The notes under the pieces were generated by a model. It saw nothing but the letters and a program-made list of their open reading frames with translations, had not been told where the DNA came from and did not search any database. From the NCBI GenBank assembly GCA_964533935.1, contig CAZHOG010000001.1, positions 35,702 to 99,701 on the forward strand: a stretch of 64,000 nt of DNA. The letters run 5' to 3'. Below are positions 2,905 to 54,473 of the stretch, one piece after another. The translations under genes were made by a program, and so were the position numbers. Every line of letters starts with the position of its first letter. Position 1 is the stretch's first letter. This stretch comes from an uncultured Muribaculaceae bacterium. Lineage in GTDB: Bacteria; Bacillota_I; Bacilli_A; RF39; UBA660.

Positions 2905-3999
2905 TTAAATTAATTTAATCAATATTTCGTTCATAACGTATAATTTTTCAGGATTTATAAAAACATAGCCATTCTTTTCAATTAAGTCTTTATTCTTTAA
3001 TAATGGATTAATAGGATAAGCATCCTTAATATCAATATTATATTTTTCTTTAAAATCATTCATATTTATTCCTTGAATTTTTCTAAATCCAAGCATTAAT
3101 TCTAAATCCATAATATCATTTTGAGTTAACAATTCTTTTGAAGAAAATTCTTCTTCTTCAATATATTCTTTTAAGCTTCTAGTGTTATTATATCTAACAC
3201 CATCAACATATCCAGATGCACCAACTCCAAAACCATAATATTCTTCATTATTCCAATATTTTAAATTATGTTTAGATTCATGATTATCTAAAGCAAAATT
3301 ACTTATTTCATAATGATTAAAATGATTTTTCTTTAAGGTTTTACAAATATATTTATACATTTCGTAATCTAAGTCTTCATCACAATTTTGATACTTTTGA
3401 TTATTCAAAATTGTATTTTCTTCTAAAATTAAACTGTAAGTACTAATATGATTAGGTTTTAATTTTAATATCTTTTTCAAATCATTCTTTAAGATACTTA
3501 AATTTTGATCTTTAAAACCATATATAATATCTACATTTATATTATCAAAGCCAAACTCTCGACACATATTGATTTTTTTCAAAGCATCATCAAAAGTATG
3601 ATGTCTATTCATAATATTTTGCAATAATTCATTAAAAGACTCTATTCCAATACTTAATCTATTAACTCTATTTTCTCTTAAAATTGAAAGTAAATTTTCA
3701 TTTATATCATTTAAATTACATTCAAAAGTAAATTCATATTCTTGACTCAAATTAAATCTAGAAATAATTTTAAATAATACATCTAATTCATTTTCAGTTA
3801 AAGATGATGGAGTTCCACCACCAACATAAATAGAATTAATCTCTTCTCCCATATATATATCTTTTATTTCATTATTTAATTTTTTTAGATATGGCATTAC
3901 CCACTCTTTTTTGTATAACACTTTACAAAAATCACAATAAGAGCAAATTGTTTTACAAAAAGGAATATGAATATAAACTGCTTTAGTTATTTCATTCAT
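2905..3999 (-). CDS. hemW: Radical SAM heme chaperone HemW (HemN-like oxygen-independent coproporphyrinogen III oxidase family)
   Basis: It has the radical SAM motif (YIHIPFCKTICSYCDF) and a HemN-like C-terminal domain. It lies immediately downstream of lepA, as in Bacillus. Confidence 0.85.
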   Translation of the reverse strand: MNEITKAVYIHIPFCKTICSYCDFCKVLYKKEWVMPYLKKLNNEIKDIYMGEEINSIYVGGGTPSSLTENELDVLFKIISRFNLSQEYEFTFECNLNDINENLLSILRENRVNRLSIGIESFNELLQNIMNRHHTFDDALKKINMCREFGFDNINVDIIYGFKDQNLSILKNDLKKILKLKPNHISTYSLILEENTILNNQKYQNCDEDLDYEMYKYICKTLKKNHFNHYEISNFALDNHESKHNLKYWNNEEYYGFGVGASGYVDGVRYNNTRSLKEYIEEEEFSSKELLTQNDIMDLELMLGFRKIQGINMNDFKEKYNIDIKDAYPINPLLKNKDLIEKNGYVFINPEKLYVMNEILIKLI

Positions 4000-4023: not shown

Positions 4024-4476
4024 TTATTTATTTTGATGATGTTTATTTACATAAAATAGTTCTTGAAGTGCTTCTTTTGTTTTAGGATCATCAATTTTCA
4101 TAAGACGGTCATAAATAGTAGAAACAGGTCTATCATACTTTAAAGAAGCTTCAGATAAAGTTAAATTATTATTTAACATTTGCTCTAATATTTCAGTGAT
4201 TTCAAAATCACTAATTGATGGCGTAGCAACACCATTTTTTCCACCAACCTGATTGCCTATTTTAATTAGTCCTTTTTGAACTTCTTTAACAGCAATATAT
4301 AAGTCATTATTTATAGAAGGTAAATTATTTTTATCGTTGATATATTTTTTTATTGAAGAAATAGAAATTCCAAAATGATTAGCAGTTACTTCAATAGTAG
4401 CTTTATTTTCAATAATATACTTACTGATTTCTAATATTTTTCGCTCTTTTTCTCTTTTTATTTCTTCCTGTGTCAT
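4024..4476 (-). CDS. SpoIIID-like helix-turn-helix DNA-binding protein with a C-terminal extension
   Basis: Residues ~10-65 align with SpoIIID (KIGKYIVETKKTVRVIAKEFGVSKSTVHKDL..LPEINPDLANEVKE versus EISKYIIENKATIEVTANHFGISISSIKKYI..LPSINNDLYIAVKE). A second HTH-like segment lies near the C-terminus. Confidence 0.45.
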   Translation of the reverse strand: MTQEEIKREKERKILEISKYIIENKATIEVTANHFGISISSIKKYINDKNNLPSINNDLYIAVKEVQKGLIKIGNQVGGKNGVATPSISDFEITEILEQMLNNNLTLSEASLKYDRPVSTIYDRLMKIDDPKTKEALQELFYVNKHHQNK

Positions 4477-6281
4477 TAATTTTCCTCCTTAAGTATTTCT
4501 AAGAAAACATCACTTGGAACTTCAACAGAACCAACCATTTTCATACGTTTCTTACCTTCTTTTTGTTTTTCTAATAATTTTCTCTTACGTGAAACATCTC
4601 CACCATAACATTTAGCCAATACATTCTTTTTCATGGCTGAAATATTTTCACGAGCTATTACTTTAGCTCCAATGCTTGCTTGAATTGGAACTTGAAACAT
4701 TTGTCTTGGAATTAGTTTCTTTAATTTTTCAGTAATTTGTTTACCTCTTTGGTACGCAAAATCTTTATGAACAATAACAGATAATGCATCAACTACATCA
4801 CCATTTAATAAAATATCCATTTTAACTAATTTTGAAGATTTATATCCAATGATTTCATAGTCAAAAGATGCATAGCCTTTAGTACTTGATTTTAATTTAT
4901 CAAAGAAGTCATAAACTATTTCTGAAAGTGGTATTTCATAATGAATATTAACTCTTGTATCATCAATATATTCTAAAGATTTATATATACCACGCTTATT
5001 TTGGCATAAGTCCATTATTGCCCCAATATACTCACTTGGAACAATTATATTAGTATAAATATAAGGCTCTTTAATATCTTTAATATATGTTTGTTCAGGC
5101 ATTTTAGCAGGAGAATCGATAAGTTCAAAATTATTATTAGTTAATGTTACTTCATATATAACACTTGGACTAGTAGCAATAATACTAATATCAAATTCTC
5201 TTTCAATTCTTGTCATGATGATATCCATATGTAATAATCCTAAAAATCCCGTTCTAAATCCAAAACCTAATGCTTCTGATGTTTCAGGTTCAAAAGTTAA
5301 AGCAGCATCATTTAATTTCAATTTTTCTAAGGCATCTTTTAACGCTTCATACTTATTTGGTTCTACAGGAAATATTCCTGAATAAACCATTGGTTTCATA
5401 GGTTTATATCCTTCTAAAGGCTCTAATGCATTATTTGATTCTAATGTGATGGTATCACCAACCGCAACACTAGAAATATCTTTAATACTAGCACAAATAT
5501 ATCCTACTTCTCCAGATACTAAATCTGCTTTGTCAATTGGTTTAGGATTATGAAATCCTAATTCAACGACTTCAAACGATTTATTAGAAGCCATCATTTT
5601 AATTGTATCTTTAACTTTAAGTTTTCCATCTACTATTTTTACTAAAGCAACTACGCCTTTATATGGATCAAAATAACTATCAAATATTAAAGCACGTAAA
5701 GGTTTATCATTATTAACCACTGGTGGTTCAATGCGTGTAATAACAGCTTCAATCAATTCTTTTACACCTTCACCAGTTTTACCACTACATAATAATATTT
5801 CTTCTTCTTTAAAACCTAATACGCGACATAATTCTTCCTTAACTTTAGGCACATCAGCATTTGGTAAATCAATCTTATTAATAACTGGAATAATAGTTAA
5901 ATCATTAGCCATTGCTAAATATAAATTAGCAAGAGTTTGAGCTTCAATGCCTTGAGCAGCATCCACGACTAAAATAGCACCTTCACAAGCTGCCAAACTT
6001 CTTGAAACTTCATATGTAAAATCTACATGTCCTGGAGTATCTATTAAATTTAAAATATATTCCTCATTATTAAATTTATAATTTAATCTAACTGCATTTA
6101 ATTTGATAGTTATTCCACGTTCACGTTCTAAATCCATATTATCAAGTAATTGTTCTTTCATGTCTCTTTTATCAACACTACCAGTTAATTCTAGTATTCT
6201 ATCAGCTAGTGTACTTTTACCATGATCTATATGGGCTATAATTGAAAAATTTCTTATATTTTGTTTCATCATTCTGCTCAC
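4476..6281 (-). CDS. lepA: Elongation factor 4 (LepA)
   Basis: It carries the GTPase motifs ([25 protein letters not shown]) and the characteristic LepA C-terminal domain. Confidence 0.95.
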
Positions 6282-6310
6282 CTAGAAACAATTATACCTT
6301 AATTTATAAC

Positions 6311-6646
6311 TTACGAAAACATTTTTTTAATTACTTTACCTATTTTTCCTATGCCTTCAGTCAAAAATTTTTCTAAAGATAAGGAAACTTCATCACCTAA
6401 TTTACTGGCAGTATTAGAATAATCAATATTATTATCTTGAGAATATTGTTTAATATCAATATTTCGGTTATTTTTTACATCCTCTTCAAATTTAGCAATA
6501 TTTTCATCAGTTAAAACAATTTTATTATTCGTTTGATTTTCATAATAACCACTTTCACCAGCTATATATAAACTTATATATAATATAAATAGAATAAATA
6601 ATATTCTTAAAACAGGATTACTCTTTTTCTTTTTCATTATCTTCAT
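6311..6646 (-). CDS. YqxA-like small membrane-anchored protein
   Basis: It has an N-terminal TM segment and sits between spoIIP and lepA, as yqxA does in Bacillus. The call rests on synteny only. Confidence 0.35.
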   Translation of the reverse strand: MKIMKKKKSNPVLRILFILFILYISLYIAGESGYYENQTNNKIVLTDENIAKFEEDVKNNRNIDIKQYSQDNNIDYSNTASKLGDEVSLSLEKFLTEGIGKIGKVIKKMFS

Positions 6647-7559
6647 CTACTATTCTTTTATAAACATTAGCTAAAGCTTCTAAAGAATTACTAATGCTTT
6701 TTATATCATTATATGGTCCTCCAACTTCAATTAATACTGCATTATTAGAAATATCTTGATTAAAAATACCAGAATTATTTTTAATATCTATTCCTCTAGT
6801 AATTGAAGGATTAAATTCTTTCAAATAGTTATTAATTCGATTAGCCATTTCTAAATTTCTTTCAAAACCATCATGCCCCTTGCCTAAAACTATCATTATT
6901 TTAGCATATGTCTTACCATCAATTTCACATTTAGATATATTTTCTGGAATTGAATCTCGATGTAAATCAATCACATATTTTATACTTTTATTTTTGTCTA
7001 AGGCATCTAGAGCAAGTAATTTTGAAGCTTTATAAGAATTCTTATAGCTCCAATTGTTTATATCTAAAATTTCTTTAATATTATTTTTTTCAACTATAGA
7101 AGATATTCCTAAATCACTTAATTTGTTTTGTAATATCAAACTTGCATGTAATACAGTAGGAACAATATTATATTCATTATTATTTGTTTTTCTATATTCT
7201 TCTGTTTGATGTGTATTATAAATATAAACCAACGGTTCACTATTATTATCATTATTTTCTATAATAACTGCTGGTGTTACTTGTTCAACATTTTTTTTGC
7301 TAACTGGTAAATCAATATCAATTCCAAATGAATAATTCAGAAGAAAAGATATACCATTATTTTTTAATATTTTATTAGTATTAGTTTTTGTGTCATCCAA
7401 TAAAATACTAATCAATTGTTGTTCTGATAAGTTTTTTGTTAGAGAATCATATAAATAATTAAAAGTTAAGCAGACTACTACTAAAATAATTACAATAAAA
7501 AATAAAATATAGATAAATATATTCTTTTTATTTTTCTTACCTTTAAATCTCTTTTTCAT
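6618..7559 (-). CDS. spoIIP: Stage II sporulation protein P (SpoIIP-like cell-wall amidase/peptidase)
   Basis: It has an N-terminal TM anchor and the SpoIIP-type motif YIYNTHQTEEY. It is located upstream of yqxA-lepA, as in Bacillus. Confidence 0.6.
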   Translation of the reverse strand: MKKRFKGKKNKKNIFIYILFFIVIILVVVCLTFNYLYDSLTKNLSEQQLISILLDDTKTNTNKILKNNGISFLLNYSFGIDIDLPVSKKNVEQVTPAVIIENNDNNSEPLVYIYNTHQTEEYRKTNNNEYNIVPTVLHASLILQNKLSDLGISSIVEKNNIKEILDINNWSYKNSYKASKLLALDALDKNKSIKYVIDLHRDSIPENISKCEIDGKTYAKIMIVLGKGHDGFERNLEMANRINNYLKEFNPSITRGIDIKNNSGIFNQDISNNAVLIEVGGPYNDIKSISNSLEALANVYKRIVDEDNEKEKE

Positions 7560-7628
7560 ATGATCACCATATTAATATATTAGATTATTTTTAATGTATA
7601 AAATGTCATATTATGTAAATATTTTAGG

Positions 7629-7657
7629 TTGTGATTATTATTTAATTATTGTATAAT
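7629..7657 (+). promoter_or_regulatory. Putative sigma-A promoter for the PilB-like ATPase gene
   Basis: TTGTGA (7629-7634) is followed by a 17-nt spacer and then an extended -10 TGTATAAT (7650-7657). An AAGAGGA RBS lies ahead of the ATG at 7689. In a genome this AT-rich, promoter calls are weak. Confidence 0.3.
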
Positions 7658-7688
7658 ATTTTTAGAATAAAGAGGACTAGGTGAAATT

Positions 7689-8981
7689 ATGTTAAGAGAA
7701 TTTGATTATGAAAATATGCCCGTTGCAGATATTGTAAACGAGATTATTATAGATGCCGTTAAAAGAGGTGCTTCTGATATCCATTTAGACCCCAGACCAG
7801 AATTTTTAATGATTAGAATTAGAATTGATGGTGAATTAGTAGATTACACTACTATCCCATTAGGAATTAAAAATCATATAACAACAAAAATAAAGATTTT
7901 AGCTGGAATGAATATTACAGAATCAAGACTACCACAAGATGGTGCCATCAAAACTACTATTGAAGATAGAAGTTTGGACTTACGTGTCTCTACTCTACCA
8001 ATTGTTTATGGAGAAAAAGTAGTTATTCGTATCTTAGATTACTCAAGAAGTATGGAAGGTTTAGAAAATTTAGGATTCTCTGAAGAAAACCTAACTAAAA
8101 TTAATAAAATAATTCAAAATCCAAATGGTATTATATTAGTAACCGGTGCTACTGGAACAGGAAAATCTACTACTGTTTATGCCGTTTTAGATAAATTAAA
8201 TACAACTGAAAGAAATATTATTACAGTTGAAGATCCAGTCGAAATGAAAATTGAAGGTGTAAACCAAGTACAAGCAATGAGTGATATTGGATTAACATTT
8301 GCAAATGCATTAAGAAGTATTTTACGTCAAGACCCCGATACTATAATGATTGGAGAAATTCGTGATGATGAAACTGCAAGAATTGCTATTCGTGCTGCCA
8401 TTACAGGACATTTAGTATTATCAACAATCCATACAAATAACTCATTAAATACAATAGAACGTTTACTTGATATGGATGTTGAAAGATATTTATTAGGTTC
8501 TGCTCTAACAGGTATTGTTTCACAAAGATTAACTAAAAAATTATGTCCAAAATGTCGTACAACAAGAGCTACTACGCCTTATGAAAAAGCTATATTTAAA
8601 AAATCTTTAGGGCTTGATGTAGATACCATTTATGCACCAGTTGGTTGTGATGAATGTTATAAAGGATACAAAGGAAGAATTGCAATACATGAAGTTCTTG
8701 CGGTTAACCAAGAAGTTAGAGATGCAATATTAAATAATATAAGAAAAGATGAATTAAGAAGAATTATTTATAAAAAAGGAAAAACAGTTACTCTTCTTCA
8801 AGATGGACTTGAAAAAGTTATGAATGGTTTAACTTCATTTGATGAAATATTAAGAGTTATAGAAGTTGATAGTGATTTCGGTGAAGATGAAAAAGATATC
8901 AGAGATGCTATAATTGGTAAAATTCCTACAACAGTTCAAAATAATGAACCAATAAAAGAAATAGAAACTTTAGATTTTTAA
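7689..8981 (+). CDS. Type II/IV secretion-family ATPase (PilB/GspE-like, short form)
   Basis: It has a Walker A motif (GATGTGKST), Asp and His boxes, and a C-terminal tetracysteine motif (CPKC ... GCDEC). At 430 aa it lacks the long N-terminal domain. Confidence 0.8.
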   Translation: MLREFDYENMPVADIVNEIIIDAVKRGASDIHLDPRPEFLMIRIRIDGELVDYTTIPLGIKNHITTKIKILAGMNITESRLPQDGAIKTTIEDRSLDLRVSTLPIVYGEKVVIRILDYSRSMEGLENLGFSEENLTKINKIIQNPNGIILVTGATGTGKSTTVYAVLDKLNTTERNIITVEDPVEMKIEGVNQVQAMSDIGLTFANALRSILRQDPDTIMIGEIRDDETARIAIRAAITGHLVLSTIHTNNSLNTIERLLDMDVERYLLGSALTGIVSQRLTKKLCPKCRTTRATTPYEKAIFKKSLGLDVDTIYAPVGCDECYKGYKGRIAIHEVLAVNQEVRDAILNNIRKDELRRIIYKKGKTVTLLQDGLEKVMNGLTSFDEILRVIEVDSDFGEDEKDIRDAIIGKIPTTVQNNEPIKEIETLDF

Positions 8982-18823: not shown

Positions 18824-19309
18824 TTATTTGCTAAGCAAAGTAACATCTGGTTCACTATCACAATTTGTACTTGCTGCAGCCGCTTTTGCAGTTATGTTTG
18901 AACTAGTTACATCAGGAACTGCACCAGAAACTGCATAATTATTATTAGAAAGCCATATTTTATAATCAGCTTTGCCTGAAGAAGGAGTAATCGTGATTAA
19001 AACACTTCCATTATAATTATCATCATTTTTTTCCAAAAAGCCATTTGTTAAATAACCATATGTTATACAAATTTTATTTTTAACTGGAGTATTAGCCATT
19101 ACTGCATCAGCATATGCAGTTTGTGCTGCTCTAATTATTTCATTTGCTTCTACAGCGAATGAATTCTTTCTAGCTTTTTCCATTGAACTTAAAACAGCAG
19201 GCATTGCAATTAAAATAATAATTGCTAATACAACAATAACTGCTAATAATTCTACTAAAGTAAATCCTTTCTTGTTATTTTTTACGTTTAATTTTTTCAT
19301 AACACTCAC
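18824..19309 (-). CDS. Type IV pilin (prepilin with a class III signal)
   Basis: It has a basic leader followed by the G|FTLVELLAVIVVLAIIILIA prepilin peptidase site with Glu at +5. The mature protein is ~146 aa and has 2 Cys near the C-terminus. Confidence 0.8.
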   Translation of the reverse strand: MSVMKKLNVKNNKKGFTLVELLAVIVVLAIIILIAMPAVLSSMEKARKNSFAVEANEIIRAAQTAYADAVMANTPVKNKICITYGYLTNGFLEKNDDNYNGSVLITITPSSGKADYKIWLSNNNYAVSGAVPDVTSSNITAKAAAASTNCDSEPDVTLLSK

Positions 19310-24660: not shown

Positions 24661-25956
24661 TTATAATTCATCAGCTGATATTGTAATAACTGGGCGAACT
24701 CCAAAATTATTAGGATTATAATAATATATATCATAATAAAACTTACCGTTTTTATTAATACGCCAAGCACTTGAAGTATCATAAGAAGACATAGTCCAAT
24801 ATGATGTTGAGAAAATAAACGTAGGGGCTAATGTACAAGATTCATTGCTTGAGGAACATCCTAAAGTTTCTAATTCTTCTTTTGTTATAAGACTTGCATT
24901 ATTTATTGTCGCTCCCAATAATTCTAATTTTGTTTTATATGTATTTACATATCCTTCAACTATACTTCCTGTGTAATCGCTATAATTTATTCCCTTTTTT
25001 TCATCTGTTGAAAATGCTGTTCCACCATTTCTTAAATCTTGAACAGATACATATCCTAACATTGTGCTATCTTGTATTCCAGTTGCTTCAGCCCCATAAG
25101 CAGTATAAGTACTTGTCGAATTATCATACGTTCCGCCAACATACAAATTATATTGAGCTAATGCTTTAATATTCGTACCATCATTTGATATAACATAAAA
25201 ACTTTCTGTATCAAAAGTAATTAAATCACCAATATCAGCAATTCCATTGTTATTTTCATCATTTGTTAATTTCCATGATTTATTTAAAATACTTGAACTT
25301 GTTGTTGAAGTAACTAATATTTTTGCTTCAAAATTTTGATTCATTGTAGAAGGATCTTCAACAGATTCATCTACCCATAAATATAGAGCATATGACTTAG
25401 ATTCTCCTGCTTTAACTGCCAATGTATTATCTTCATTCATAGTAGCTGCTTTTAAGCTTCCTGTTGTCAAAATATAAGAGTTTGCAATCGTAAATGTATT
25501 ATTGTTTGCATCAGTATATTCGTAATTAGTATAATCATCATATTTTTTTTGCGAAGAAACCAATGATGGGCCAGTAACATTATTTGATTCATCAACTAAT
25601 TCAAAATCAATTAATGGTTCTAAAACACTTGAACCATTGGTATTTAATGTTACATTATAATTCATATCTATTGAGCAATTATTTGTAATAGATAAAGAAT
25701 AAGGTGATTTACTTAAAGCTTCTGTTTCTGTCATTGGATATGTATTTTGTAAATTAATTGAATTACCACTTTCACTTAATTGAAAAGAGAAGCATCCTGA
25801 ATTAATTTCATTTGTATCAGTTTGACTATAATTTTTTTGCCAATAAGCATATGTAATGCCAGTAATTAATACTGCTACTAATAAAAATACTAAAACGCTC
25901 ATTAAAGTAATTCCAACTATATTTGTTTTCTTCATTTTTTTTATAAAGTTTTCCAT
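24661..25956 (-). CDS. Secreted protein with a TasA/camelysin-like N-terminal domain and a SipW-cognate-type signal peptide (paralog A)
   Basis: The N-terminal TM segment is followed by GITYAYWQKN. This parallels the TasA/CalY GGTWAAFND motif and the SipW-cognate consensus. The protein is Ser/Thr/Asn-rich and extracellular. Its C-terminal Cys-containing domain (LGCSSSNESC ... TSSAWRINKNGK) is shared with the gene at 53239..54132. Confidence 0.55.
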   Translation of the reverse strand: MENFIKKMKKTNIVGITLMSVLVFLLVAVLITGITYAYWQKNYSQTDTNEINSGCFSFQLSESGNSINLQNTYPMTETEALSKSPYSLSITNNCSIDMNYNVTLNTNGSSVLEPLIDFELVDESNNVTGPSLVSSQKKYDDYTNYEYTDANNNTFTIANSYILTTGSLKAATMNEDNTLAVKAGESKSYALYLWVDESVEDPSTMNQNFEAKILVTSTTSSSILNKSWKLTNDENNNGIADIGDLITFDTESFYVISNDGTNIKALAQYNLYVGGTYDNSTSTYTAYGAEATGIQDSTMLGYVSVQDLRNGGTAFSTDEKKGINYSDYTGSIVEGYVNTYKTKLELLGATINNASLITKEELETLGCSSSNESCTLAPTFIFSTSYWTMSSYDTSSAWRINKNGKFYYDIYYYNPNNFGVRPVITISADEL

Positions 25957-26002: not shown

Positions 26003-26033
26003 TAAAAAAGACAATGAAATAATTATTCATTGC
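26003..26033 (-). terminator. Rho-independent terminator downstream of ruvB
   Basis: On the minus strand CAATGAA-(7-nt loop)-TTCATTG is followed by TCTTTTTTATTT. A sigma-A-like promoter follows before the TasA-like gene: TTGTCT, a 17-nt spacer, then TATAAT at 25986-25991. Confidence 0.45.
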
Positions 26034-27024
26034 CTTTAAAATCTAATCCTAAATGTTTATATGATTTTTCACAAGCTACTCTACCTCTTTGAGTTCTTTT
26101 AACAAATCCTTCTTGTAATAAAAATGGTTCTACGACATCCTCTATAGTTGTTTCTTCTTCACCAATAGAAGTTGCAATAGTTTGAACACCAACAGGACCA
26201 CCATTAAATTTATTGATTAATGCTAATAAATATTCTTTATCAATTTGATCTAAGCCTTCATCATCAACTTTTAATCTTTTTAACGATTCTAGAGTAATAT
26301 CTTTTGTAATTATAGACCCATTTTCTACTAAAGCAAAATCTCTTACACGTTTAAATAATCTATTAGCTATTCTAGGCGTTTTACGACTTCTTCTTGCAAG
26401 TTCTAATACTGCATCATCTTCAATAGGCATATTTAAAACTCTACTTGTACGTTTAATAATATCTCCTAATTCTTCAACACTATAATAATTAAGCTTAGAA
26501 ACTATTCCAAATCTATCTCGCAAAGGTGCTGAAATATCCCCAGATCTAGTAGTAGCTCCTACAAGAGTAAATGGTGGTAAATCTATTTTTAAGCTTCTAC
26601 TTTTGCCATCTGTACCAATAATAATATCCAATTCAAAATCTTCCATAGCGGGATATAATATTTCTTCAATATATCTTGGCATACGGTGTATTTCATCAAT
26701 AAATAATACATCTCCTGGTTCAAGATTAGATAATATAGCTGCTAAATCTCCTGGTTTTTCAATTGAAGGTCCACTTGCAGTTTTAATATCACTACCAAGT
26801 TCATTGGCAATAATATGAGCTAGTGTTGTTTTTCCTAAACCAGGAGGACCATATAATAAAACATGATCTAATACTTCATCACGCATCTTGCATGCTTTAA
26901 TAAATACTCTAATATTTTCTTTAACTTCTGTTTGGCCAACATATTCATCTAAATATTCTGGTCTAATATTAGAATCTAAAGTATCAGTAATCAATTCTTC
27001 TTGATCAATTATTCTTTCTTCCAT
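26023..27024 (-). CDS. ruvB: Holliday junction branch migration helicase RuvB
   Basis: It has the AAA+ motifs ([19 protein letters not shown], sensor regions) and RuvB-specific C-terminal domains. Confidence 0.95.
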
Positions 27025-27034
27025 AAAATTCTCC

Positions 27035-27595
27035 TTATTTTAATAATAATTTAAAAGCTTCTTTAATTTGATCTTCTAATTTTTTAGATTCATCAATTTT
27101 AGGTAAAATCTTTTTGATATCACCACTTTTATAACCCAAAGCTTCAAGTGCTTCAATTAATTCAGTAAAATCACTACCAGTGGATTCACTATTAGATGCT
27201 AATTTTCCTTTTAAATCTAATATTATTTGTCTTGCTAATTTTTCACCAATCTTTGGGAATTTTGTTAAATACAAAATATTTTCTCGATCTATTGCATCTA
27301 TTATACCTTCAACTGACCCTGTAGCAAGCATTGGCATAGCTACTTTAGGTCCTAATCCTTTAACATTGATTAATTTTAAAAACAAATTTTTTTCTTCAGA
27401 AGATTTAAATCCATATAAACTAAATTCATCTTCTCTTATGTGAGAATATAAATAAACAGTTGCATCTTTATCTTTTTCATATCTAAATGGATTAGCAACA
27501 AATATTTGATAACCAATATTATTATTATCAACTACTACATAATTGCTTCCAATCTCAGTAATTATTCCTTTTATATAATTAAACATTATTATCAC
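27035..27595 (-). CDS. ruvA: Holliday junction DNA-binding protein RuvA
   Basis: It is 186 aa with an OB domain I, HhH domain II (GLGPKVA) and domain III. It is immediately upstream of ruvB. Confidence 0.9.
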
Positions 27596-27654: not shown

Positions 27655-28635
27655 TTACTTATCTCCTTCTTCTAACATAGTAGTAATAAATAAACCATAG
27701 CCTGTTTTAACTTTATCAACTACAACATGCGTTACTACACCACATATTTTATCATTTTGAACAATTGGGCTGCCTGACATTCCCTGAACAATTCCACCAG
27801 TTTCATTCAATAGTTTTTCATCAGTTATTTCAAAGCTTAAATTTTTTACTTTACTATTTTTATTTATCTTTGTAATATTTATTTCAAATTTTTCTTTATT
27901 TGTATCATTTAATACAGTATAAATATATGCCTTTCCCAATGAAATTTCATCTTTAGATGCAACCTCTATTAAACTTGAAGTATCTATTTCGCTTTTATAA
28001 TCACCAAATATACCATAAATAGTATTTTTATTTATAGTACCAAATTTATTTTTAGAATTAAATTTAGCATTTTTTTCTCCTGGACTTCCATCAATTGATT
28101 TATCAATACCTGTTATTGAACTCTCAAATATGTAACCAGTTTTTACTTCAATTCTTTTATTTGAATTACTTTCTATTATCTCATGTCCCAAACTTCCATA
28201 TATTTTCGTTTCAGGATCAATATATGAAATTGTACCAATTCCTTTGATATTATCTTTAACATATAAACCAGTTTTATAAATTCCGTTTTCACTATATAAA
28301 TGTAGTGTTGAAGTGATTTCTTCATCATTTCTTTTTATAATCAGCTCTATTTTATTATCTATTATATTTTTTTCTATAGCATTTGTAAGTTCATTTATAG
28401 AACTAATTTTTGTATCTCCAACTTGAGTAATTAAGTCCCCTACTTTTAATTCATTACTCCCTTTATTTAAAGTACCATTAACTTTATAAAATCCAATAAT
28501 TATAACCCCATTGTTTTCTATATTTATACCTATATTTTGGCCACCTAAAACTACTTTACTAGAATATGCAAAGACATTAAAAGGCAACAATAATGCCACA
28601 AATAATGAGACTATTTTATACTTAATATTTTTCAT
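27655..28635 (-). CDS. SpoIVB-like S55 serine peptidase with a PDZ domain
   Basis: It has a signal peptide, a PDZ-like region (VGDLITQVGDTKI) and the catalytic-serine motif GGIVQGMSGSPIVQN..CGVVTHV. That motif is typical of the sporulation peptidase SpoIVB. Confidence 0.65.
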   Translation of the reverse strand: MKNIKYKIVSLFVALLLPFNVFAYSSKVVLGGQNIGINIENNGVIIIGFYKVNGTLNKGSNELKVGDLITQVGDTKISSINELTNAIEKNIIDNKIELIIKRNDEEITSTLHLYSENGIYKTGLYVKDNIKGIGTISYIDPETKIYGSLGHEIIESNSNKRIEVKTGYIFESSITGIDKSIDGSPGEKNAKFNSKNKFGTINKNTIYGIFGDYKSEIDTSSLIEVASKDEISLGKAYIYTVLNDTNKEKFEINITKINKNSKVKNLSFEITDEKLLNETGGIVQGMSGSPIVQNDKICGVVTHVVVDKVKTGYGLFITTMLEEGDK

Positions 28636-28710
28636 ACTACCACCTATTACTATTATGTGTATATCTATTTAATATATAATTTGTAATAATTGGCATAAAA
28701 AAATCAACCT

Positions 28711-30024
28711 TTATTTGGTTAATTTTCTAGCATCATCTAATTGTTTAAAATATGTATTTCTTCTTAATTTATTTAAAGCTGAGCTTTCAATTTGTCTTAT
28801 TCTTTCTCGAGTAACACCCATCATACTGCCAATTTCTTCCAATGTATAAACTCGTCCATCATAAAATCCCATTCTATAAAATACTATTTTAAATTCTCTT
28901 TCATTTAAAATTGATTTTAAAGCTTCTACTGTTTGAACTGATGATAAATTATCTAATGCAGTTTTTTCAACGTTTATTGGAGATTCAATAAAATCTTCTA
29001 AGCAAACCTTATCATTGTGTTCTTCTGACACTACTGAATTTAAAGACACCATATCATTTTGATATTTATTTATAATTTCAATATCTTTTATTGAAAAACC
29101 AGTCAATTTGGAAAGCTCTTCGAGTGATGGTTGACGATTATTTTCAGAAACAAATTTAAATACAATAGCTTTTAACTTAACTGTTTTCGATTGTAAGTGT
29201 ACTGGTTTTCTAATTGTTGCACAAAAATTATAATAATATCTACCTACATAGTGTTCAATCCAATTAACAGCATAAGTTGAAAACTTAAAACCTAATTTAT
29301 AATTAAAGCTTTTTATTGCTCTTTCTAATCCAAAATATCCTTCTTGAATAACATCATCTAATTCAATCTTGCTTTTTCCTTGAGGGTTTATACGCTTGTA
29401 ATAAAAATTAGAAGCAATAAATCTAACTAAAGGAAGATTTTTTTCAATAATAATGCTTTTGTATTCTTCATAATTATTTGAATCTTTTTCTAAAGCTTCA
29501 AATAATTTTTGCTCTTCAGCAAAGGTTAATGTAGAAACTTTTGAAATGGATTGATCATCAGTTTCAACTATTTCAATATTATTTTTATCTAAATACAAAG
29601 TAATAATTGTTTTAAAATTAACATCTTCACCATAAAATGAATCAATATAATCAGATTTAACTGCTTTTTTATTACCAACTACTTTTTCTAAAAACATATT
29701 AAATTTAGGCAAATTCATTATTACATTTGCTTCTTCTAAAGAAAGTTCATATTCATAACGATTTAAAAAAGAAAAAAATTGAATAAATTTACTTGCTAAT
29801 GTAGTAGCAGTAGCTTCACCATCAAATGGAATAGACTCGAATTGTTTAATTATTATAGGTAATGATAAATTATTCTTTAAATATATATTTACTGCTTTAT
29901 GTACACCAGCTTTTGTTAATTCTTTTTTCGGTATAGAATTATATACTTTTTTTAAATCACTTTCATTCTCAAAATAGTTTGCGTAACTCTGTAATGCTTC
30001 TTTATATGACATTGTTTCATTCAT
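28711..30024 (-). CDS. Sigma-70 family RNA polymerase sigma factor with a ~190-aa N-terminal extension
   Basis: Region 2 is present (DVIQEGYFGLERAIKSFNYKLGFKFSTYAVNWIEHY) and so is region 4 ([30 protein letters not shown]). The first ~190 aa do not resemble sigma regions. Confidence 0.7.
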   Translation of the reverse strand: MNETMSYKEALQSYANYFENESDLKKVYNSIPKKELTKAGVHKAVNIYLKNNLSLPIIIKQFESIPFDGEATATTLASKFIQFFSFLNRYEYELSLEEANVIMNLPKFNMFLEKVVGNKKAVKSDYIDSFYGEDVNFKTIITLYLDKNNIEIVETDDQSISKVSTLTFAEEQKLFEALEKDSNNYEEYKSIIIEKNLPLVRFIASNFYYKRINPQGKSKIELDDVIQEGYFGLERAIKSFNYKLGFKFSTYAVNWIEHYVGRYYYNFCATIRKPVHLQSKTVKLKAIVFKFVSENNRQPSLEELSKLTGFSIKDIEIINKYQNDMVSLNSVVSEEHNDKVCLEDFIESPINVEKTALDNLSSVQTVEALKSILNEREFKIVFYRMGFYDGRVYTLEEIGSMMGVTRERIRQIESSALNKLRRNTYFKQLDDARKLTK

Positions 30025-30100
30025 GTTTTCACCCCATCAAATTAGGAAATATTGTATCTCATATGGGTATTAAAGTCAAATAAAAAATCCTATCAAGGAT

Positions 30101-31767: not shown

Positions 31768-32972
31768 TCTACCTCCTTAACAATTGCTTTAATATTACCT
31801 TGATGAAATCTTACATTAATTTCATCATTAACATCTAAACTTTTACTATCTTTAATTACTTCATCGTTTTTTGATACCAGTGAATATCCCTTATCTAAAA
31901 TATTTAATGGATTAACTAATTTTAAAGTATTTGAATTTAAAATTAGCAGATGTTTTTTATTAAGTAAATAAGATTTAATAAAATTATTTAGTTTATCTAT
32001 ATTACTATCTAATTTTTGTTCTTTTACTTCATATATTGCCAATGGATTTTTTAAAATATATGATTTTTTAATATTATCTAATCTATTTTCTTTTAATTTT
32101 AATAAATTCATAATGAATTTATTATTTCTTAATTCTAATTGATTTATTTTAAAATTAACATCACTTATAGTTGGAACAGCCATTTCAGCAGCTCCAGTTG
32201 GAGTCGGTGCTCTTAAATCAGCTACATAATCAGCTATTGTAAAATCAATTTCATGTCCAACAGCACTTATTATAGGTATCTCACTATTAAATATTGCTCT
32301 AGCAACTATTTCTTCATTAAAGGCCCATAAATCTTCTATAGAACCACCACCACGGCCACAAATAATTACATCAAGATCATATTCATTGGCTTTTTTAATT
32401 TGATTAACAATATCTGGTGCTGCACTTTTTCCTTGAACTAAACAAGGAAATAAAATAGTTTCACATATTGGATATCTTCTTTTAATTGTACTAATAATAT
32501 CTTTAATAGCTGCACCAGTAGATGCAGTAATAACACCTATTTTTGTTGGATATTTTGGAATTGGCTTTTTATGAATATTATCGAACAAACCTTCAGCAGC
32601 TAACTTTTTCTTAAGTTTTTCAAATTCTAAATATAAATTACCAAGGCCATCCATTTCCATTTTATCAACATAGATTTGATATGTTCCTTGAGCCGGATAA
32701 CAAGAAACTCTTCCTTCAACTAAAACATTCATCCCATCTTCAGGAACAAAAGACAATTTAGTAGCATTACCTGCAAACATCACTGCACTTAATCTAGAAT
32801 CATCATCTTTTAAAGTAAAATATAAATGTCCTCTAGTATGATTTTTAAAATTAGAAATTTCACCTTTTAAATAAACATGTTGCAAATGTGAATTATTATC
32901 AAACATAGATTTTAAATAATTATTGATTCTTGAAATTGTAACATATTTATCTTCCATGGGACTTATCTTCAC
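31764..32972 (-). CDS. xseA: Exodeoxyribonuclease VII large subunit
   Basis: It has an N-terminal OB-fold (tRNA_anti-like) and the catalytic domain. Its position after nusB is conserved. Confidence 0.9.
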   Translation of the reverse strand: MKISPMEDKYVTISRINNYLKSMFDNNSHLQHVYLKGEISNFKNHTRGHLYFTLKDDDSRLSAVMFAGNATKLSFVPEDGMNVLVEGRVSCYPAQGTYQIYVDKMEMDGLGNLYLEFEKLKKKLAAEGLFDNIHKKPIPKYPTKIGVITASTGAAIKDIISTIKRRYPICETILFPCLVQGKSAAPDIVNQIKKANEYDLDVIICGRGGGSIEDLWAFNEEIVARAIFNSEIPIISAVGHEIDFTIADYVADLRAPTPTGAAEMAVPTISDVNFKINQLELRNNKFIMNLLKLKENRLDNIKKSYILKNPLAIYEVKEQKLDSNIDKLNNFIKSYLLNKKHLLILNSNTLKLVNPLNILDKGYSLVSKNDEVIKDSKSLDVNDEINVRFHQGNIKAIVKEVE

Positions 32973-33891
32973 TTTCTATTTTTAATTTATTTATAGCATT
33001 TGTTATTTCATTGTAATTCATTTCATAATTTCTTATTAAAGTACTCTTATACATATATGGAAAAGAAATATTTCTTTTATCTTCAATATTTAAAATAATT
33101 TCTTTTAATTTATTTGGAGTAAAGTAATAATATATATTTAAGAATTGATTAATATTTTCTCTTCCAGAAAAACTTAAATATTTTTCTATTTCAACGTTAC
33201 CGCAATATTCATTTTCAACTTTCATTTGAGGAATAAACCCCATAAAATTAAAAGACAATTCATTATCATATAATGGAGTTAATGTCGCAATATTCTTTTT
33301 GGCATTTTCCATTATTTCCCAATTTCTTTCATGTCTATCATTTTGCATAGTTAAATAATCTAGAGAATATCTTTTTGTTAATTCAACCATAATATTTTTT
33401 ACAATGTTTAGTCGATTATCTTCATCATAATTATGGAAATGATAGTTTAATGCATCCCAAATATTTTCAAGATTATTCATATCATTAATTAAATATTTTC
33501 TCAAATCATCATTTAATGGATATTTAATAACATAAGTTGGATTAATATATTCATTTATTAGCTTATTCTCTTCTAAATAATTCAAATACTCTTCTAATAT
33601 AATAGAACCATTAATGTAAGAAAAATCAGCTTGACGATAATCTTTTGTTAATGTTCCAATTTTATTATTTATTTGAGCAGCTTCAATATGAACAACATCT
33701 ATCCCAATTTCTTTGGCCATTTCTTCAACAATCATATCGTTATAAATAGATTCCATTTTATAAGAATTATCAAAGTTTTTTAACGCATTTTTAAAAAAAT
33801 ATTCTTCGCCATTTATATTAATAGTATTTTTTCTTTGAAAGAAGAACTTCTTTTTACAGTATTTACTAATATCAACAATTCCGTTTTCCAT
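32947..33891 (-). CDS. HipA-like (HipA_C-fold) putative Ser/Thr kinase, short form (paralog 1)
   Basis: It has a HipA-type substrate-binding helix motif (EEMAKEIGIDVVHIE), a catalytic-loop-like LDYLTMQNDRHERNW (D.H..N), and an APxYD-like Mg-binding motif (LTPLYDNE). It overlaps the xseA start by 26 nt. Confidence 0.4.
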   Translation of the reverse strand: MENGIVDISKYCKKKFFFQRKNTININGEEYFFKNALKNFDNSYKMESIYNDMIVEEMAKEIGIDVVHIEAAQINNKIGTLTKDYRQADFSYINGSIILEEYLNYLEENKLINEYINPTYVIKYPLNDDLRKYLINDMNNLENIWDALNYHFHNYDEDNRLNIVKNIMVELTKRYSLDYLTMQNDRHERNWEIMENAKKNIATLTPLYDNELSFNFMGFIPQMKVENEYCGNVEIEKYLSFSGRENINQFLNIYYYFTPNKLKEIILNIEDKRNISFPYMYKSTLIRNYEMNYNEITNAINKLKIESEDKSHGR

Positions 33892-36811: not shown

Positions 36812-37732
36812 TTATCTTTTTAATGGTTTAAAATTATTTAATTCATTTTGTAACATATTATAATTAAATACATATTGAGAATAAATAGAATCTTTTATCT
36901 TATTATCTATTTTAAAGTTTAACTTATATTCAAGATTTATAAACATTCTTTTTACTTCCAAAGGATTTAAATAATTCATTAATCTTTCAAATTCATCTTG
37001 AAAATATGAAGATGAATAATTCAAAAATTTTTGTAATTCACTTATATTAGAATATTCTTCATTTTCATTAAATACATCAGTTCTTATATTTAAATTCTTT
37101 TCTGAATTTGTGTGAAGGCCATTTAACATTTTTTGATTATCAAAAATTGGTGCAAGTGTAGCATAATCTTCTGTTTCTTCTACTAACCAATTATATGAAG
37201 CACCATCACATTGATTAATTAATATATCAAATAAATATTTTTCCGATAATTTATATAAAATATTTTTAATAATATTCTTCTTATTAGGGTTATTTCGATA
37301 TTTAATTTCAAGTAAATCCCAGATGCTTTCAAGATTATTATATTTAGCATAATCTATTTTATCAGTTGGTTCTTCATCAAGATATCTATGATAATTTTCA
37401 ATCAAATCATCTCCTGAATAATAGTTACAATAGTCTTTTTTAAAATCTTTTGTAATTACACCATACATTCCATTAAATAATGCTAAATCATATGTTGCAT
37501 GATCATAACCAACAGTTTCTAACATTTCACTAGCTAGTAATTCTTTTATTTCTTCGTCTTTTGAACTGCACATTTTGAACATATACCTTTGATTGCCAAT
37601 AGAAAACCAGAAATTAACATCATTTATAATTTCTACTACACCCATTTTTTCCAATTTGTATACATTCATGCAATTATATTTTTCTAAAAAATAGGAATCT
37701 AAATCAATATAGCCATTATTTCTTTCAAACAT
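36812..37732 (-). CDS. HipA-like (HipA_C-fold) protein, paralog 2, with a degenerate catalytic loop
   Basis: It aligns along its whole length with the 32947..33891 product (LASEMLETVGYDHATYD; NLESIWDLLE; LAPIFDNQ). The catalytic-loop equivalent is CDGASYNW, where Asp and Asn are kept but His is replaced. Confidence 0.4.
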   Translation of the reverse strand: MFERNNGYIDLDSYFLEKYNCMNVYKLEKMGVVEIINDVNFWFSIGNQRYMFKMCSSKDEEIKELLASEMLETVGYDHATYDLALFNGMYGVITKDFKKDYCNYYSGDDLIENYHRYLDEEPTDKIDYAKYNNLESIWDLLEIKYRNNPNKKNIIKNILYKLSEKYLFDILINQCDGASYNWLVEETEDYATLAPIFDNQKMLNGLHTNSEKNLNIRTDVFNENEEYSNISELQKFLNYSSSYFQDEFERLMNYLNPLEVKRMFINLEYKLNFKIDNKIKDSIYSQYVFNYNMLQNELNNFKPLKR

Positions 37733-45535: not shown

Positions 45536-46175
45536 TTATTTTCTTTAATCTACGAATGTTTTTTATTAACTTAAATCTTTGTGAAAAATTTCTACGGGGA
45601 ATTTTTTTTAATATGCCACTATAATCAGCAATTAAATATTTGTAATATTCTATATTTTCTTTTTTATATAACCCAAACAATAAGATATTTTTCTTTAATT
45701 TTTGTTTTCCTTTTATATACTTAGAAACTACATAATAATGTTTTTTTTCATAAATAATTTTTTCATCAACAAGCGAATAATTATTATTCATCATATATTT
45801 TCTTAATTCATATAAATCATTATTTGAAGACAAAATAATTTTATTAATACTTTGAAATTTTTCTTTTTCATCGATAATAGACTTTATTGTTTTTGTTCCC
45901 ATACCAGCAATAACTACTGTATCTAAATTTTTTGTATCAATATTTTTTAAACCATCAGATAAAATTGTTTTTATTTTTTTATTCAAATTATATTTATCTA
46001 TATTATTTTTAGCAATATCTAATGCATTTCTATTTATATCACTCGCAATTATTTTATTACATAAATTATTTTCTATTAAATATATATCTAAATAAGCATG
46101 ATCACAACCAATATCAACTACTGAATCACTTTTATCAATAAAAAAAGCAATTGCTTTTAATTTTAATGAAATCAT
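45528..46175 (-). CDS. trmK: tRNA (adenine22-N1)-methyltransferase TrmK (YqfN family)
   Basis: It has a SAM-MTase fold (VVDIGCDHAYLDIYL ... IASDIN). It is immediately downstream of sigA, as in the Bacillus dnaG-sigA-yqfN block. Confidence 0.8.
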   Translation of the reverse strand: MISLKLKAIAFFIDKSDSVVDIGCDHAYLDIYLIENNLCNKIIASDINRNALDIAKNNIDKYNLNKKIKTILSDGLKNIDTKNLDTVVIAGMGTKTIKSIIDEKEKFQSINKIILSSNNDLYELRKYMMNNNYSLVDEKIIYEKKHYYVVSKYIKGKQKLKKNILLFGLYKKENIEYYKYLIADYSGILKKIPRRNFSQRFKLIKNIRRLKKIIK

Positions 46176-47278
46176 TAATCAGATAAGAAATCCTTTAATT
46201 TTTTAGCACGAGATGGATGTCTTAATTTTCTTAAAGCTTTTGCTTCTATTTGTCTAATACGTTCACGAGTAACATTAAATCTTTTACCAACTTCTTCTAA
46301 AGTATGGCTTGTTCCATCAATAAGACCAAATCTTAATTCAAGAACTTCTTGCTCTCTTTCTTGTAATGTCATTAATACTGATTTTATTTCTTCTTTTAAT
46401 ATTTCATTTGTTGCATAATCTTCAGGAGACATATTTCTTTCATCTGGAACAAAATCTCCTAAATGTGAATCATCTTCCTCACCAATTGGTGTTTCTAATG
46501 AAACTGGATCTTGACTAATTTTAATTACTTCACGAACTTTTTCTGGAGTAATGCCCATTCTTTTAGCAATTTCTTCTTCACTTGGTTCACGATTTAATTC
46601 CAAAGTCATTTGACGTTGAATACGAGCCATTTTATTTATAGTTTCAACCATATGAACTGGAACACGAATTGTTCTTGCTTGGTCTGCTAATGCACGAGTT
46701 ATAGCTTGTCTAATCCACCAAGTTGCATATGTAGAAAATTTATAACCTTTGTCATAATCAAACTTTTCAACACCTTTCATTAAACCAATATTTCCTTCTT
46801 GAATTAAATCAAGGAATAGTAACCCACGTCCAACATATCTTTTAGCAATAGATACAACTAAACGTAAATTCGATTCAGCTAAAATATTTTTAGCCATTTC
46901 ATCGCCTTCAGCTACCCTAATTGATAAATTCATTTCTTCTTCTGGAGAAAGCAAACTAATTCTACCAATTTCTTTCAAATACATTCTTACAGGATCATTT
47001 ATATTAATATCTTTTGTAATTTCTTCATCATTTAATATAATTGGTTCATCTATTTGTTTAATATCTGCTGATGAAGCATCACTATCATCTTCATTTATAA
47101 CTTCAATATTATTTTCAAGTAAAGTATTATAAATATTATCTAAATCATCTGCTTCAATATCTAATCCTTTTAAACAATTAGCTAATTGTTCAAATGTAAT
47201 ATGTCCTTCTTTTTTTCCTAATTCTACTAATTCTTTTTCTCTATCTTCTAATGTTTTAATTTCTTTCATAATCCACAC
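46175..47278 (-). CDS. sigA: Primary sigma factor RpoD/SigA
   Basis: It has regions 1.2 to 4 and the rpoD box ([40 protein letters not shown]). It is downstream of dnaG. Confidence 0.95.
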
Positions 47279-53238: not shown

Positions 53239-54473
53239 CTATAGTTTATTTATTTCAATCAAAGCTTTACCAAATGTTGTATTACCACAATTATTATTGT
53301 AATATCCATCACACCCTGAAAGGTTTGGAGCTAATCTATTACTTTTATCTATTCTCCAAGCACTTGTAGTATCAGTAGATTTAGCATTCATTGTCCATAT
53401 ATTTTCTCCATTATTTATCCATTTTGGACAACTATCAGCTGTTTCACTACATCCTAATTTAGCTGCTTCTTGGACAGTAATAATTCTTGCTAAAACATTA
53501 TTTTTTTCAAGATTATAAGTGTTACTTGAACAAATATTATAATTTGAACAACCCGTATATTTATTAGTTGCAAATACTGTAGTACCCATGTTGTATGACA
53601 TTGCATTAACATTACTCCAAGAAGATGTACTAGACTCTATTGCATTTAAAACTCCATAAGGCCCATTTGCAGTACTTGAATTATTAACATTTGACCATGA
53701 AACATTACTAGTAGTATTTTCAATTTGCTGAATTCTCATTGTCTCACCATCATCAAATAAAACATTAAAAGCTTTTTCGGCATTTTCATTTACTTCATAA
53801 AGAATAATTGTACCAGCTTTACAGCTATTAGCATCAAGATTACGATAGCATTTAGTTACTTCACATGTTTCTTCACTACCATTAACACAATAAGTACTAG
53901 ACGTGCTATCGTCATTGTAATTATATGCTGCTACTATATTTTTATTTTTAACAGCTACTTTATCAGCACTTTCATTATCTATTCCTAAAGTTCCTTCAAA
54001 ACTACATCCTTGACTATTTTGTTCTTCATCTTTATTAACAAATGTTATCTCCATTGAATAATTTTCTATGGTATTTGCTGGAATATCTAATTCATATAAA
54101 ATATATGTTCTTCCATCTTTCGTAACTGGCATTTTTCTCGTGCCAGTGATTAAATCTTCACCATTTTTATAGTATATACCAAATCATCATTAAATGTATT
54201 TATTATCCCATCAATATAAATATTAAATTTCATATCAATGTTATTAGTATTTTCTACACTAAATGTTTTAATAAATGATTGACCAGGTAGTATTCCTTCA
54301 ACATCTATTTCAGCCTCTCCTGTAAAAACTAATTCTAAGTTCCCGGCTTTAACAATAGTTTTAGTTTTATTAATTTCTTGAATTTTTGCAGTAAAATACG
54401 AAAAAGTAACTCCTAAAGCAATAACTAAAAATATAACAATAATTGATAAAGCAGTAATAATTTTTTTACTCAT
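53239..54473 (-). pseudogene. TasA/camelysin-like secreted protein gene (paralog B) disrupted by a frameshift
   Basis: ORF 54150..54473 (signal anchor plus the TasA-like motif GVTFSYFTAKIQEINKTKTIVKAGNLELVFTG) and ORF 53239..54132 are consecutive parts of one protein in two frames. I judged this by alignment to the 60078..62339 product. The frame switch maps to the A5/T5 tract at 54164-54168. The C-terminal domain is shared with the 24661 paralog. Confidence 0.55.

Follow-up and report, generated by a model that had tools for sequence, protein, structure and literature searches.

A SigA-derived sigma factor with a two-part N-terminal domain lies beside a SpoIVB-type peptidase gene in an uncultured bacterium

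In the 64-kb window analysed here, the whole stretch of 64,000 nucleotides from contig CAZHOG010000001.1 of an uncultured bacterium, a gene for a sigma-70 family factor with a long N-terminal extension lies directly beside a gene for a SpoIVB-type peptidase. This arrangement raises the question of whether the two form a self-contained, proteolytically regulated sigma module, as the initial annotation of this DNA had proposed, or whether the sigma factor is an unusual housekeeping-like paralogue that happens to have a suggestive neighbour, which was the other possibility it raised. We use the label sigX for the 437-aa sigma product and S55 for the peptidase (Table 1). The first proposal is not supported, and the second is essentially right. 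The reading that we consider likely is that sigX, an alternative sigma factor encoded on the chromosome, descends from a primary sigma, belongs to a rare family distinguished by a two-part N-terminal domain (N-domain) of about 155 aa, directs a separate regulon and is independent of S55.

The classification of sigX as a sigma-70 protein is straightforward. As the initial annotation described, the sigma regions start at about residue 190; the Pfam models Sigma70_r2 (PF04542), Sigma70_r3 (PF04539) and Sigma70_r4 (PF04545) match in that order from residue 193, all above their gathering scores (E = 4e-11, 4e-7 and 4e-14), and a Pfam scan of residues 1-190 gives no match. The highest-scoring NCBIfam family models are of the RpoD type, with RpoD_Cterm at 166 bits and several RpoD equivalogs at 137-160 bits, all far under their cut-offs (166 against 354 bits for TIGR02393, and 156 against 572 for PRK09210), and the SigB/F/G, FliA and SigF/SigG models score just 79-90 bits; SigE/SigK models are absent from the top NCBIfam matches. 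The window also encodes a bona fide primary sigma, SigA, where the initial annotation had placed it, and BLASTP aligns sigX to this protein with 35% identity over 308 aa. A rough neighbor-joining tree places sigX within the RpoD-like cluster, at the end of a long branch, apart from the SigE/K-like and SigF/G-like sigmas of related loci. SigX is a genuine additional sigma factor that descends from the housekeeping (RpoD/SigA) type, and the copy in the window is a short, highly divergent member of its family.

The divergence is unevenly distributed along the protein. Region 4.2 (TRERIRQIE) is nearly identical to that of SigA, and alignment to SigA shows the core-binding motif of region 2.2 to be intact. 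Region 2.4, in contrast, reads FSTYAVNWIEHYVGRYY and differs from SigA; the canonical motif carrying the -10 recognition and melting residues, present in the window SigA, is absent from sigX, which has TYAVNWIEHYVGRY instead. The region 3.0 segment is VHLQSKTVK in sigX as against VHMVETINK in SigA, seven residues are inserted in region 2.1/2.2, and three substitutions, W433N, R436E and Q437H, fall at otherwise invariant positions. We take the altered positions to be the equivalents of E. coli sigma-70 W433, R436, Q437, T440 and E458, residues that read and melt the -10 and extended -10 elements. A degenerate region 1.2/2.1 begins at about residue 160 (the PRK09210 alignment covers residues 159-431), the first half of region 1.2 having been lost; the Pfam model for region 1.2 (PF00140) is not detected in sigX and is detected in five of the ten family members scanned. 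Because the residues that read the -35 element are retained and those that read the -10 element are altered, sigX is probably an alternative sigma factor. The same residues bear on the alternative that sigX is a redundant, group 2-like second housekeeping sigma serving the promoters of SigA, for example in stationary phase. Its overall RpoD-like character would suit such a role, as would the canonical motif and the region 1.2 that other family members retain, but the changed -10 and extended -10 readers and the loss of the first half of region 1.2 predict a different specificity, and we regard redundancy as improbable.

The N-terminal part of sigX is not peculiar to this protein. When residues 1-190 were used in an exhaustive search of 1.84 billion representatives by phmmer, 19 proteins were recovered (E = 5e-11 to 6e-4), the matches covering approximately residues 10-180 and lying in every case at the N-terminus of the matched protein. 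Ten of these homologues were scanned, and each proved to be a sigma-70 protein in which regions (1.2), 2, 3 and 4 occupy matching positions; the homologues range from 466 to 1348 aa, most being 545-1348 aa owing to C-terminal extensions, in which Pfam finds no strong match and only weak region-4-like hits. The 20 N-domains align nearly without gaps and share conserved residues Y14, Y48, Y61, F83, L87, Y92 and Y144. SigX thus carries a domain of about 155 aa that is homologous over its full length and stands directly ahead of regions (1.2)-2-3-4, which is how we define the N-domain sigma family (P0241-P0259 together with L018, L077 and L080). An AlphaFold2 model built from this shallow alignment has ten helices and two short strands, with a predicted local distance difference test score (pLDDT) of 90.6 and a predicted template modelling score of 0.79; on this model the sigX N-terminus is a conserved folded domain. 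A Foldseek search with the model gives no significant match in the PDB (best E = 1.2) and none in BFVD, Pfam at E ≤ 10 finds no consistent family across all 20 N-domains, the N-domain profile hits nothing relevant among PDB sequences, where it matches only a designed helical bundle, and in a word-indexed database it yields two matches only, both uninformative.

The two halves of the domain behave differently in profile comparisons. When the N-domain profile is compared by HHalign with 67 RpoD N-termini, the window SigA included, residues 103-160 align with the core of region 1.1 (probability 65%, E = 5.9e-5); with the template reversed E is 0.016, and none of 20 column-shuffled templates scores above 9.5, against 32.3 for the real one. 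With the C-terminal part of the N-domain alone the probability rises to 80% (E = 1.4e-5), whereas the first 96 residues show no similarity to region 1.1 (0.6%). PF03979, the Pfam model for region 1.1, is not detected in sigX or in the N-domains. The AlphaFold2 model of residues 97-160 (pLDDT 87) has the order helix-helix-strand-helix-helix-strand, and its top-probability Foldseek match in the PDB is B. subtilis SigA (9a58_A; probability 0.57, template modelling score 0.50 over 55 columns), with an E value of 0.7 that is not significant. The position of the segment, just ahead of a linker and region 1.2, is that of region 1.1. We conclude that residues ~103-160 are probably a region 1.1 homologue, and that residues 1-100 are, as far as sequence and fold comparisons reach, a family-specific module with no detectable relative outside this sigma family. 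The earlier statement that the N-terminus resembles neither region 1.1 nor a pro-sequence thus holds for the first hundred residues and probably fails for the segment that follows; the truly non-sigma part is about 100 aa and not 190, because RpoD models align from about residue 159 and residues 103-160 match region 1.1. An internal duplication of the N-domain was considered and rejected, since HHalign of its N-terminal part against its C-terminal part gives a probability of 5%.

The distribution of the family was examined at 80 ruvA loci, drawn from Ca. Caccenecus avistercoris, Mycoplasma sp. CAG:776, many uncultured Bacilli and other relatives. Among these, family members lie directly upstream of ruvA-ruvB in L018, L077 and L080, as they also do in L009 and L012; P0256 (466 aa) and P0252 (941 aa) have a Flp/Tad pilus operon on one side and ruvA-ruvB-queA-tgt on the other, and P0248 (1225 aa) is flanked by ftsW and murG. 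Other sigma-like open reading frames (ORFs), unmatched by the N-domain profile, stand upstream of ruvA in L036, L054 and L060, and the Tad operon runs straight into ruvA in L047, L067, L074 and L092. The long C-terminal extension with repeated sigma-4-like segments is optional within the family: it is absent from sigX, which ends 16 residues past region 4, and P0256 and the L018 ORF (a 476-residue stop-to-stop frame) are also short. A word-indexed search of 5.8 billion clusters with sigX returned just itself and generic RpoDs, with no relative above 35% identity, and that over the sigma core; a scan of genome contigs with sigX gave no match, and the identical protein is found only on two metagenome contigs, with the same neighbours on both. 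The sigX family is rare and fast-evolving, and it occurs solely in uncultured gut Bacilli of low GC content that are related to Mycoplasma sp. CAG:776 and Ca. Caccenecus.

Rarity and a very long branch could also indicate a decaying duplicate, that is, a SigA paralogue under relaxed selection with no current function and heading for loss. The failure to find any closer homologue among those 5.8 billion clusters, the three substitutions at otherwise invariant residues, the absence of the gene from the closest relatives and a frameshifted family member in L077 would all be expected of such a gene. On the other hand, the 437 codons are uninterrupted in DNA of 25% GC, in which stop codons are frequent, the identical protein occurs in two independent samples, its N-domain is still modelled with confidence in the fold of the family, neither region 4.2 nor the core-binding motif of region 2.2 is disrupted, and a good ribosome-binding site precedes the gene. 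We attach a low probability to decay.

Several relatives encode giant sigma-70 proteins of 941-1451 aa (L011 8001-11678, L012 8001-10826, L080 5601-9953, P0242, P0246, P0248 and P0250), in which the C-terminal 500-900 aa beyond region 4 have no strong Pfam match yet contain degenerate region-4-like repeats. The extension of P0242 has a sub-threshold Sigma70_r4_2 match only, together with seven copies of the motif YLRHGKxL...P(F/W)P about 80 aa apart, and P0248 carries the region 4.2 helix in four tandem copies (LEEVGKKFNVTRERTRQIEN). A similar long extension, with a FPEE..Y..KGI motif, follows SigE/SigK-like cores (ATRCIHNEILM motif) in L054 (5770-8055) and L077 (2262-5042), and these sigmas, too, are found between the Tad operon and ruvA; the extension thus seems to be common to two sigma types, RpoD-like and SigE/SigK-like. 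L077 also has two tandem copies of an N-domain sigma (5127-5927 plus 5931-6965, adjoining 7025-8908), the first of them split by a frameshift or stop, which points to a pseudogene or to a fault in the assembly. We note that many relatives (L009 2884-7930, L012 3075-7867, L018, L047, L054, L067, L068, L074, L080, L087 and L092) carry a full Flp/Tad operon (flp, two tadE, cpaE-like, tadA, tadB and tadC) immediately upstream of ruvA. The window lacks this operon and contains just a PilB/ComGA-like ATPase gene (7689..8981) and a pilin-like gene (18824..19309).

The neighbouring gene had been described as encoding a PDZ plus S55 protein with the catalytic motif GMSGSPI, and so it does. Its 326-aa product matches PDZ_2 (PF13180) and Peptidase_S55 (PF05580, E = 1e-69), and it aligns over its whole mature length, motif included, with 9lnf_A, the solved structure of B. 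subtilis SpoIVB (E = 2e-63), so it is not an unrelated PDZ protease. The SpoIVB equivalog TIGR02860 is missed marginally (301.3 against a cut-off of 305.25); its alignment spans model positions 88-399, and just the N-terminal anchor region is missing or shorter. From these alignments the product is a genuine SpoIVB-type PDZ plus S55 peptidase. Hundreds of homologues at 60-79% identity are present in metagenome-assembled genomes (MAGs) labelled "Bacilli bacterium"; the lineage is therefore well sampled. Residues 236-322 also give a weak PADLOC match to HamA1/DUF1837 (E = 4.7e-6) that is probably spurious. By eye, a SpoIIP-like amidase gene (6618..7559, minus strand) can be recognized beside lepA (4476..6281) and a hemN-like gene (2905..3999), as in the spoIIP-lepA-hemN order of B. 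subtilis, which suggests that the sporulation genes of this lineage have been retained at least in part. Related orders, probably RFN20, RF39 or ML615J-28, are fast-evolving and include both sporulating and non-sporulating families (PMC10868615), a description that fits both the long branches seen here and the persistence of SpoIVB- and SpoIIP-like genes.

In Bacillus, SpoIVB triggers the processing of pro-sigma-K, working outside the forespore membrane on SpoIVFA and not on the sigma itself (PMC6581720, PMC12502668). It was this precedent, together with the position of the two genes on the same strand with a gap of 75 bp, that recommended the idea of a module in which the N-terminus of sigX, some 190 aa, acts as a pro-sequence or inhibitory domain and is cut off, by the neighbouring peptidase or indirectly through it, to activate the sigma; the sporulation genes kept by the lineage, among them the SpoIIP-like gene, are also in keeping with it. 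Conservation of the pair, however, is lacking. Eight distinct S55 loci of relatives were examined, six of them close (L003, L005, L007, L099, L100 and L101) and two distant on duplicate contigs (L093/L094 and L096/L098), and none has a sigma gene within 5-6 kb; conversely, no S55 gene is present at any of the 80 ruvA loci, and none of the loci of sigX family members examined has an S55 neighbour. The pair is seen in this organism alone. The domain that the protease would have to remove is folded in the model and conserved in family members without an S55 neighbour, and the two products are predicted to be topologically separated: the maximum Kyte-Doolittle hydropathy over 19 residues is 1.87 for S55, at residues 8-26 in its signal peptide, and 0.76 for sigX, which has no hydrophobic segment.

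The resemblance to the pro-sigma-K and pro-sigma-E systems, with their SpoIVB-SpoIVFA-SpoIVFB-BofA checkpoint, is limited to a sigma gene beside a gene of the SpoIVB family and to extra N-terminal sequence. The pro-sequences of sigma-E and sigma-K are 20-30 residues long, unfolded and membrane-associated. SigX instead has a domain of about 155 aa that is folded in the model, and a core that is RpoD-like and not of the group 3 SigE/SigK type; no spoIVFA, spoIVFB (the intramembrane protease), bofA or sigK gene is present in the window, and no SpoIIGA gene in the neighbourhood. The gap between sigX and S55 contains a small hairpin with a T-run that separates the two genes, and this feature, with the promoter-like site and ribosome-binding site that sigX has of its own, argues against a functional link, although it is suggestive only. 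A proteolytic module is accordingly very unlikely. The adjacency appears to be an accident of one genome, and is best explained by a local rearrangement that put S55, the sole gene between sigX and ruvA in the window, in that position.

The surroundings of S55 in relatives differ from those in the window. Four of the six close-relative loci have the order xseAB-proS, a hypothetical gene of ~210-235 aa, and S55, and in three of these four an S26 signal peptidase gene follows directly; in relatives this SipW-like S26 peptidase adjoins the S55 gene. In L101 the same hypothetical family stands upstream of S55 and comEA downstream, and in L005 two small helix-turn-helix genes fill the slot upstream. 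The hypothetical family (~210-237 aa, no Pfam match; L003 5317-5964, L007 5289-5936, L099 4206-4913, L100 4305-4937, L101 2422-3135 and 3229-3888) is fast-evolving and absent from the window, where sigX takes its slot upstream of S55. The true functional partner of the peptidase may be a member of this family. The 215-aa member upstream of S55 was considered as a possible relative of the sigX N-domain and discarded, there being no similarity (E = 3.2).

An origin of sigX as a mobile-element or defence sigma, encoded by a phage or an integrative and conjugative element in the manner of MzaA, is very unlikely. GC content is uniform at ~25% across the window, sigX is flanked by core housekeeping genes in an order like that of Bacillus (nusB...xseAB, ruvAB and spoIIP-lepA-hemN), and the N-domain is unmatched in 50,697 phage and 72,556 plasmid records and among BFVD folds. 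MzaA of the MZA anti-phage system (NF041931 / PDLC02203), the top NCBIfam and PADLOC match of sigX, reaches just 172 bits where the cut-off is 800, and the alignment is confined to the generic sigma part. The patchy distribution of the gene and the HipA_C/PDC-M03A-like genes nearby might have hinted at such an origin. MzaA is like sigX in having a sigma-70 core after a long non-sigma N-terminal region, but sigX aligns at model positions 437-708 only, which is the sigma core, the N-terminal regions are unrelated, and the window has no other Mza components.

The closest known relatives of sigX in overall plan remain the group 1 (SigA/RpoD) and group 2 sigmas, with which it probably shares the order 1.1-like, (1.2), 2, 3 and 4; it differs from SigA/RpoD in the extra helical module of ~100 aa, the weak acidity of the 1.1-like part, the degenerate first half of region 1.2, the 7-aa insertion, the changed -10 residues, the failure of all RpoD equivalog cut-offs and a position unlinked to dnaG. 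The ECF41 and ECF42 sigmas of the extracytoplasmic function (ECF) group share the concept of regulation in cis by a fused domain and offer a possible analogy for the N- and C-terminal extensions seen here, but they consist of regions 2 and 4 only, their extensions are C-terminal and SnoaL-like or TPR, and no sequence or fold relationship to sigX was found.

As an alternative sigma derived from SigA, sigX would bind core RNA polymerase like any sigma-70 protein and would recognize a TTGACA-like -35 element through its intact region 4.2. The altered residues of regions 2.4 and 3.0 would read a -10 element unlike that of SigA and would therefore direct a separate regulon. The region-1.1-like part and the extra module would most probably gate DNA binding by free sigma or the formation of the open complex, or else dock or recruit a partner. 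S55 would be an independent, exported protease of the sporulation type that landed between sigX and ruvA by local rearrangement.

Several points weigh against this account. The net charge of the region-1.1-like part is -2, as against -17 for region 1.1 of SigA, which makes classical DNA mimicry doubtful; the homology to region 1.1 is moderate (probability 65-80%), and the structural match is not significant. The tree carries no support values, and the long branch of sigX could reflect relaxed selection. Finally, the MAG of the closest relative, whose RuvB is 88% identical, has no sigma gene at either candidate site, and rplS lies upstream of its ruvA, so that the gene is dispensable.

A more ambitious proposal, which we put forward tentatively and think somewhat doubtful, is that the N-module and the region-1.1-like part together form a new in-cis regulatory domain of RpoD-derived sigmas, and that the family is an extended primary-like class of uncultured gut Bacilli controlling lineage-specific functions, for example the adjacent Tad pilus. 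If true, this class would include members of more than 1,300 aa with degenerate region-4-like arrays and would work by a mechanism unseen in model organisms.

The coordinates of sigX, its parts and its neighbours are collected in Table 1. The minus-strand gene order is nusB, a HipA_C-like gene, xseA, xseB, proS, sigX, S55, ruvA and ruvB, and a small hairpin with a T-run follows the proS stop codon ahead of the promoter-like site of sigX. A promoter scan gave 50 sites against 41±7 in shuffled sequences, with no excess over the shuffles.

Table 1. Coordinates of sigX, its parts and associated features in the window
Feature	Position	Strand	Evidence
sigX, 437-aa sigma-70 family protein without C-terminal extension; layout N-module, region-1.1-like, degenerate 1.2, regions 2, 3 and 4	28711..30024	-	ORF, Pfam, NCBIfam
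sigX residues 1-100, family-specific all-helical N-module (predicted), roughly neutral, net charge -2	29725..30024	-	19 remote homologues, AlphaFold2 pLDDT >90
sigX residues ~103-160, probable region-1.1-like sub-domain (helix, strand, helix, helix, strand)	29545..29718	-	HHalign
sigX residues 161-190, linker and degenerate region 1.2/2.1	29455..29544	-	NCBIfam RpoD models, BLASTP against window SigA
sigX region 2, residues 193-260, 7-aa insertion, -10 recognition residues altered (FSTYAVNWIEHYVGRYY)	29245..29448	-	Pfam, SigA alignment
sigX region 3, residues 280-349	28978..29187	-	Pfam
sigX region 4, residues 373-421, 4.2 recognition helix conserved	28762..28908	-	Pfam, SigA alignment
Promoter-like site TTGACT-17-TACAAT upstream of sigX, followed by ribosome-binding site GGGGTGA	30051..30079	-	Consensus match, not above chance in AT-rich DNA
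S55, SpoIVB-type PDZ plus S55 serine peptidase with N-terminal signal peptide, neighbour of sigX	27655..28635	-	Pfam, NCBIfam, PDB alignment
ruvA-ruvB, conserved downstream neighbour of the sigX family in relatives	26023..27595	-	
SigA, bona fide primary sigma, downstream of dnaG, near-canonical	46175..47278	-	

Other genes of the window were also inspected. A 431-aa protein encoded downstream of ruvB has a Sigma_reg_N match and was considered as an anti-sigma candidate; the match is below the cut-off and lies in a signal or transmembrane region, and a homologue follows ruvB in a relative without a sigma, so the candidate was rejected. Two paralogous HipA_C-like proteins (32947..33891 and 36812..37732, minus strand) match the PADLOC candidate defence family PDC-M03A (E = 8e-15 and 2e-19, respectively), and relatives retain the gene at 32947..33891 between nusB and xseA. 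Large secreted or surface proteins are encoded at 24661..25956, 53239..54132 and 60078..62339 (minus strand); the first and third have N-termini like SipW/TasA-type signal peptides (…GITYAYWQ and …GVTYAFYSA), and the first and second have a C-terminal module in common (SSAWRINKNGKF / TSAWRIDKSNRL).

Sigma factors define transcriptional programmes, and to our knowledge primary-like sigmas with large fused domains have barely been explored outside the ECF group. The tempting idea that a SpoIVB-type protease forms a compact sigma-activation module at this locus is removed, and the locus opens instead a lineage-restricted sigma family of uncultured gut Bacilli, whose N-module is confidently folded in the model and has no relative in Pfam, nor in the PDB by either sequence or fold. 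If that module regulates the sigma in cis, it would represent a new control of RpoD-type sigmas in reduced-genome, fast-evolving Bacilli.

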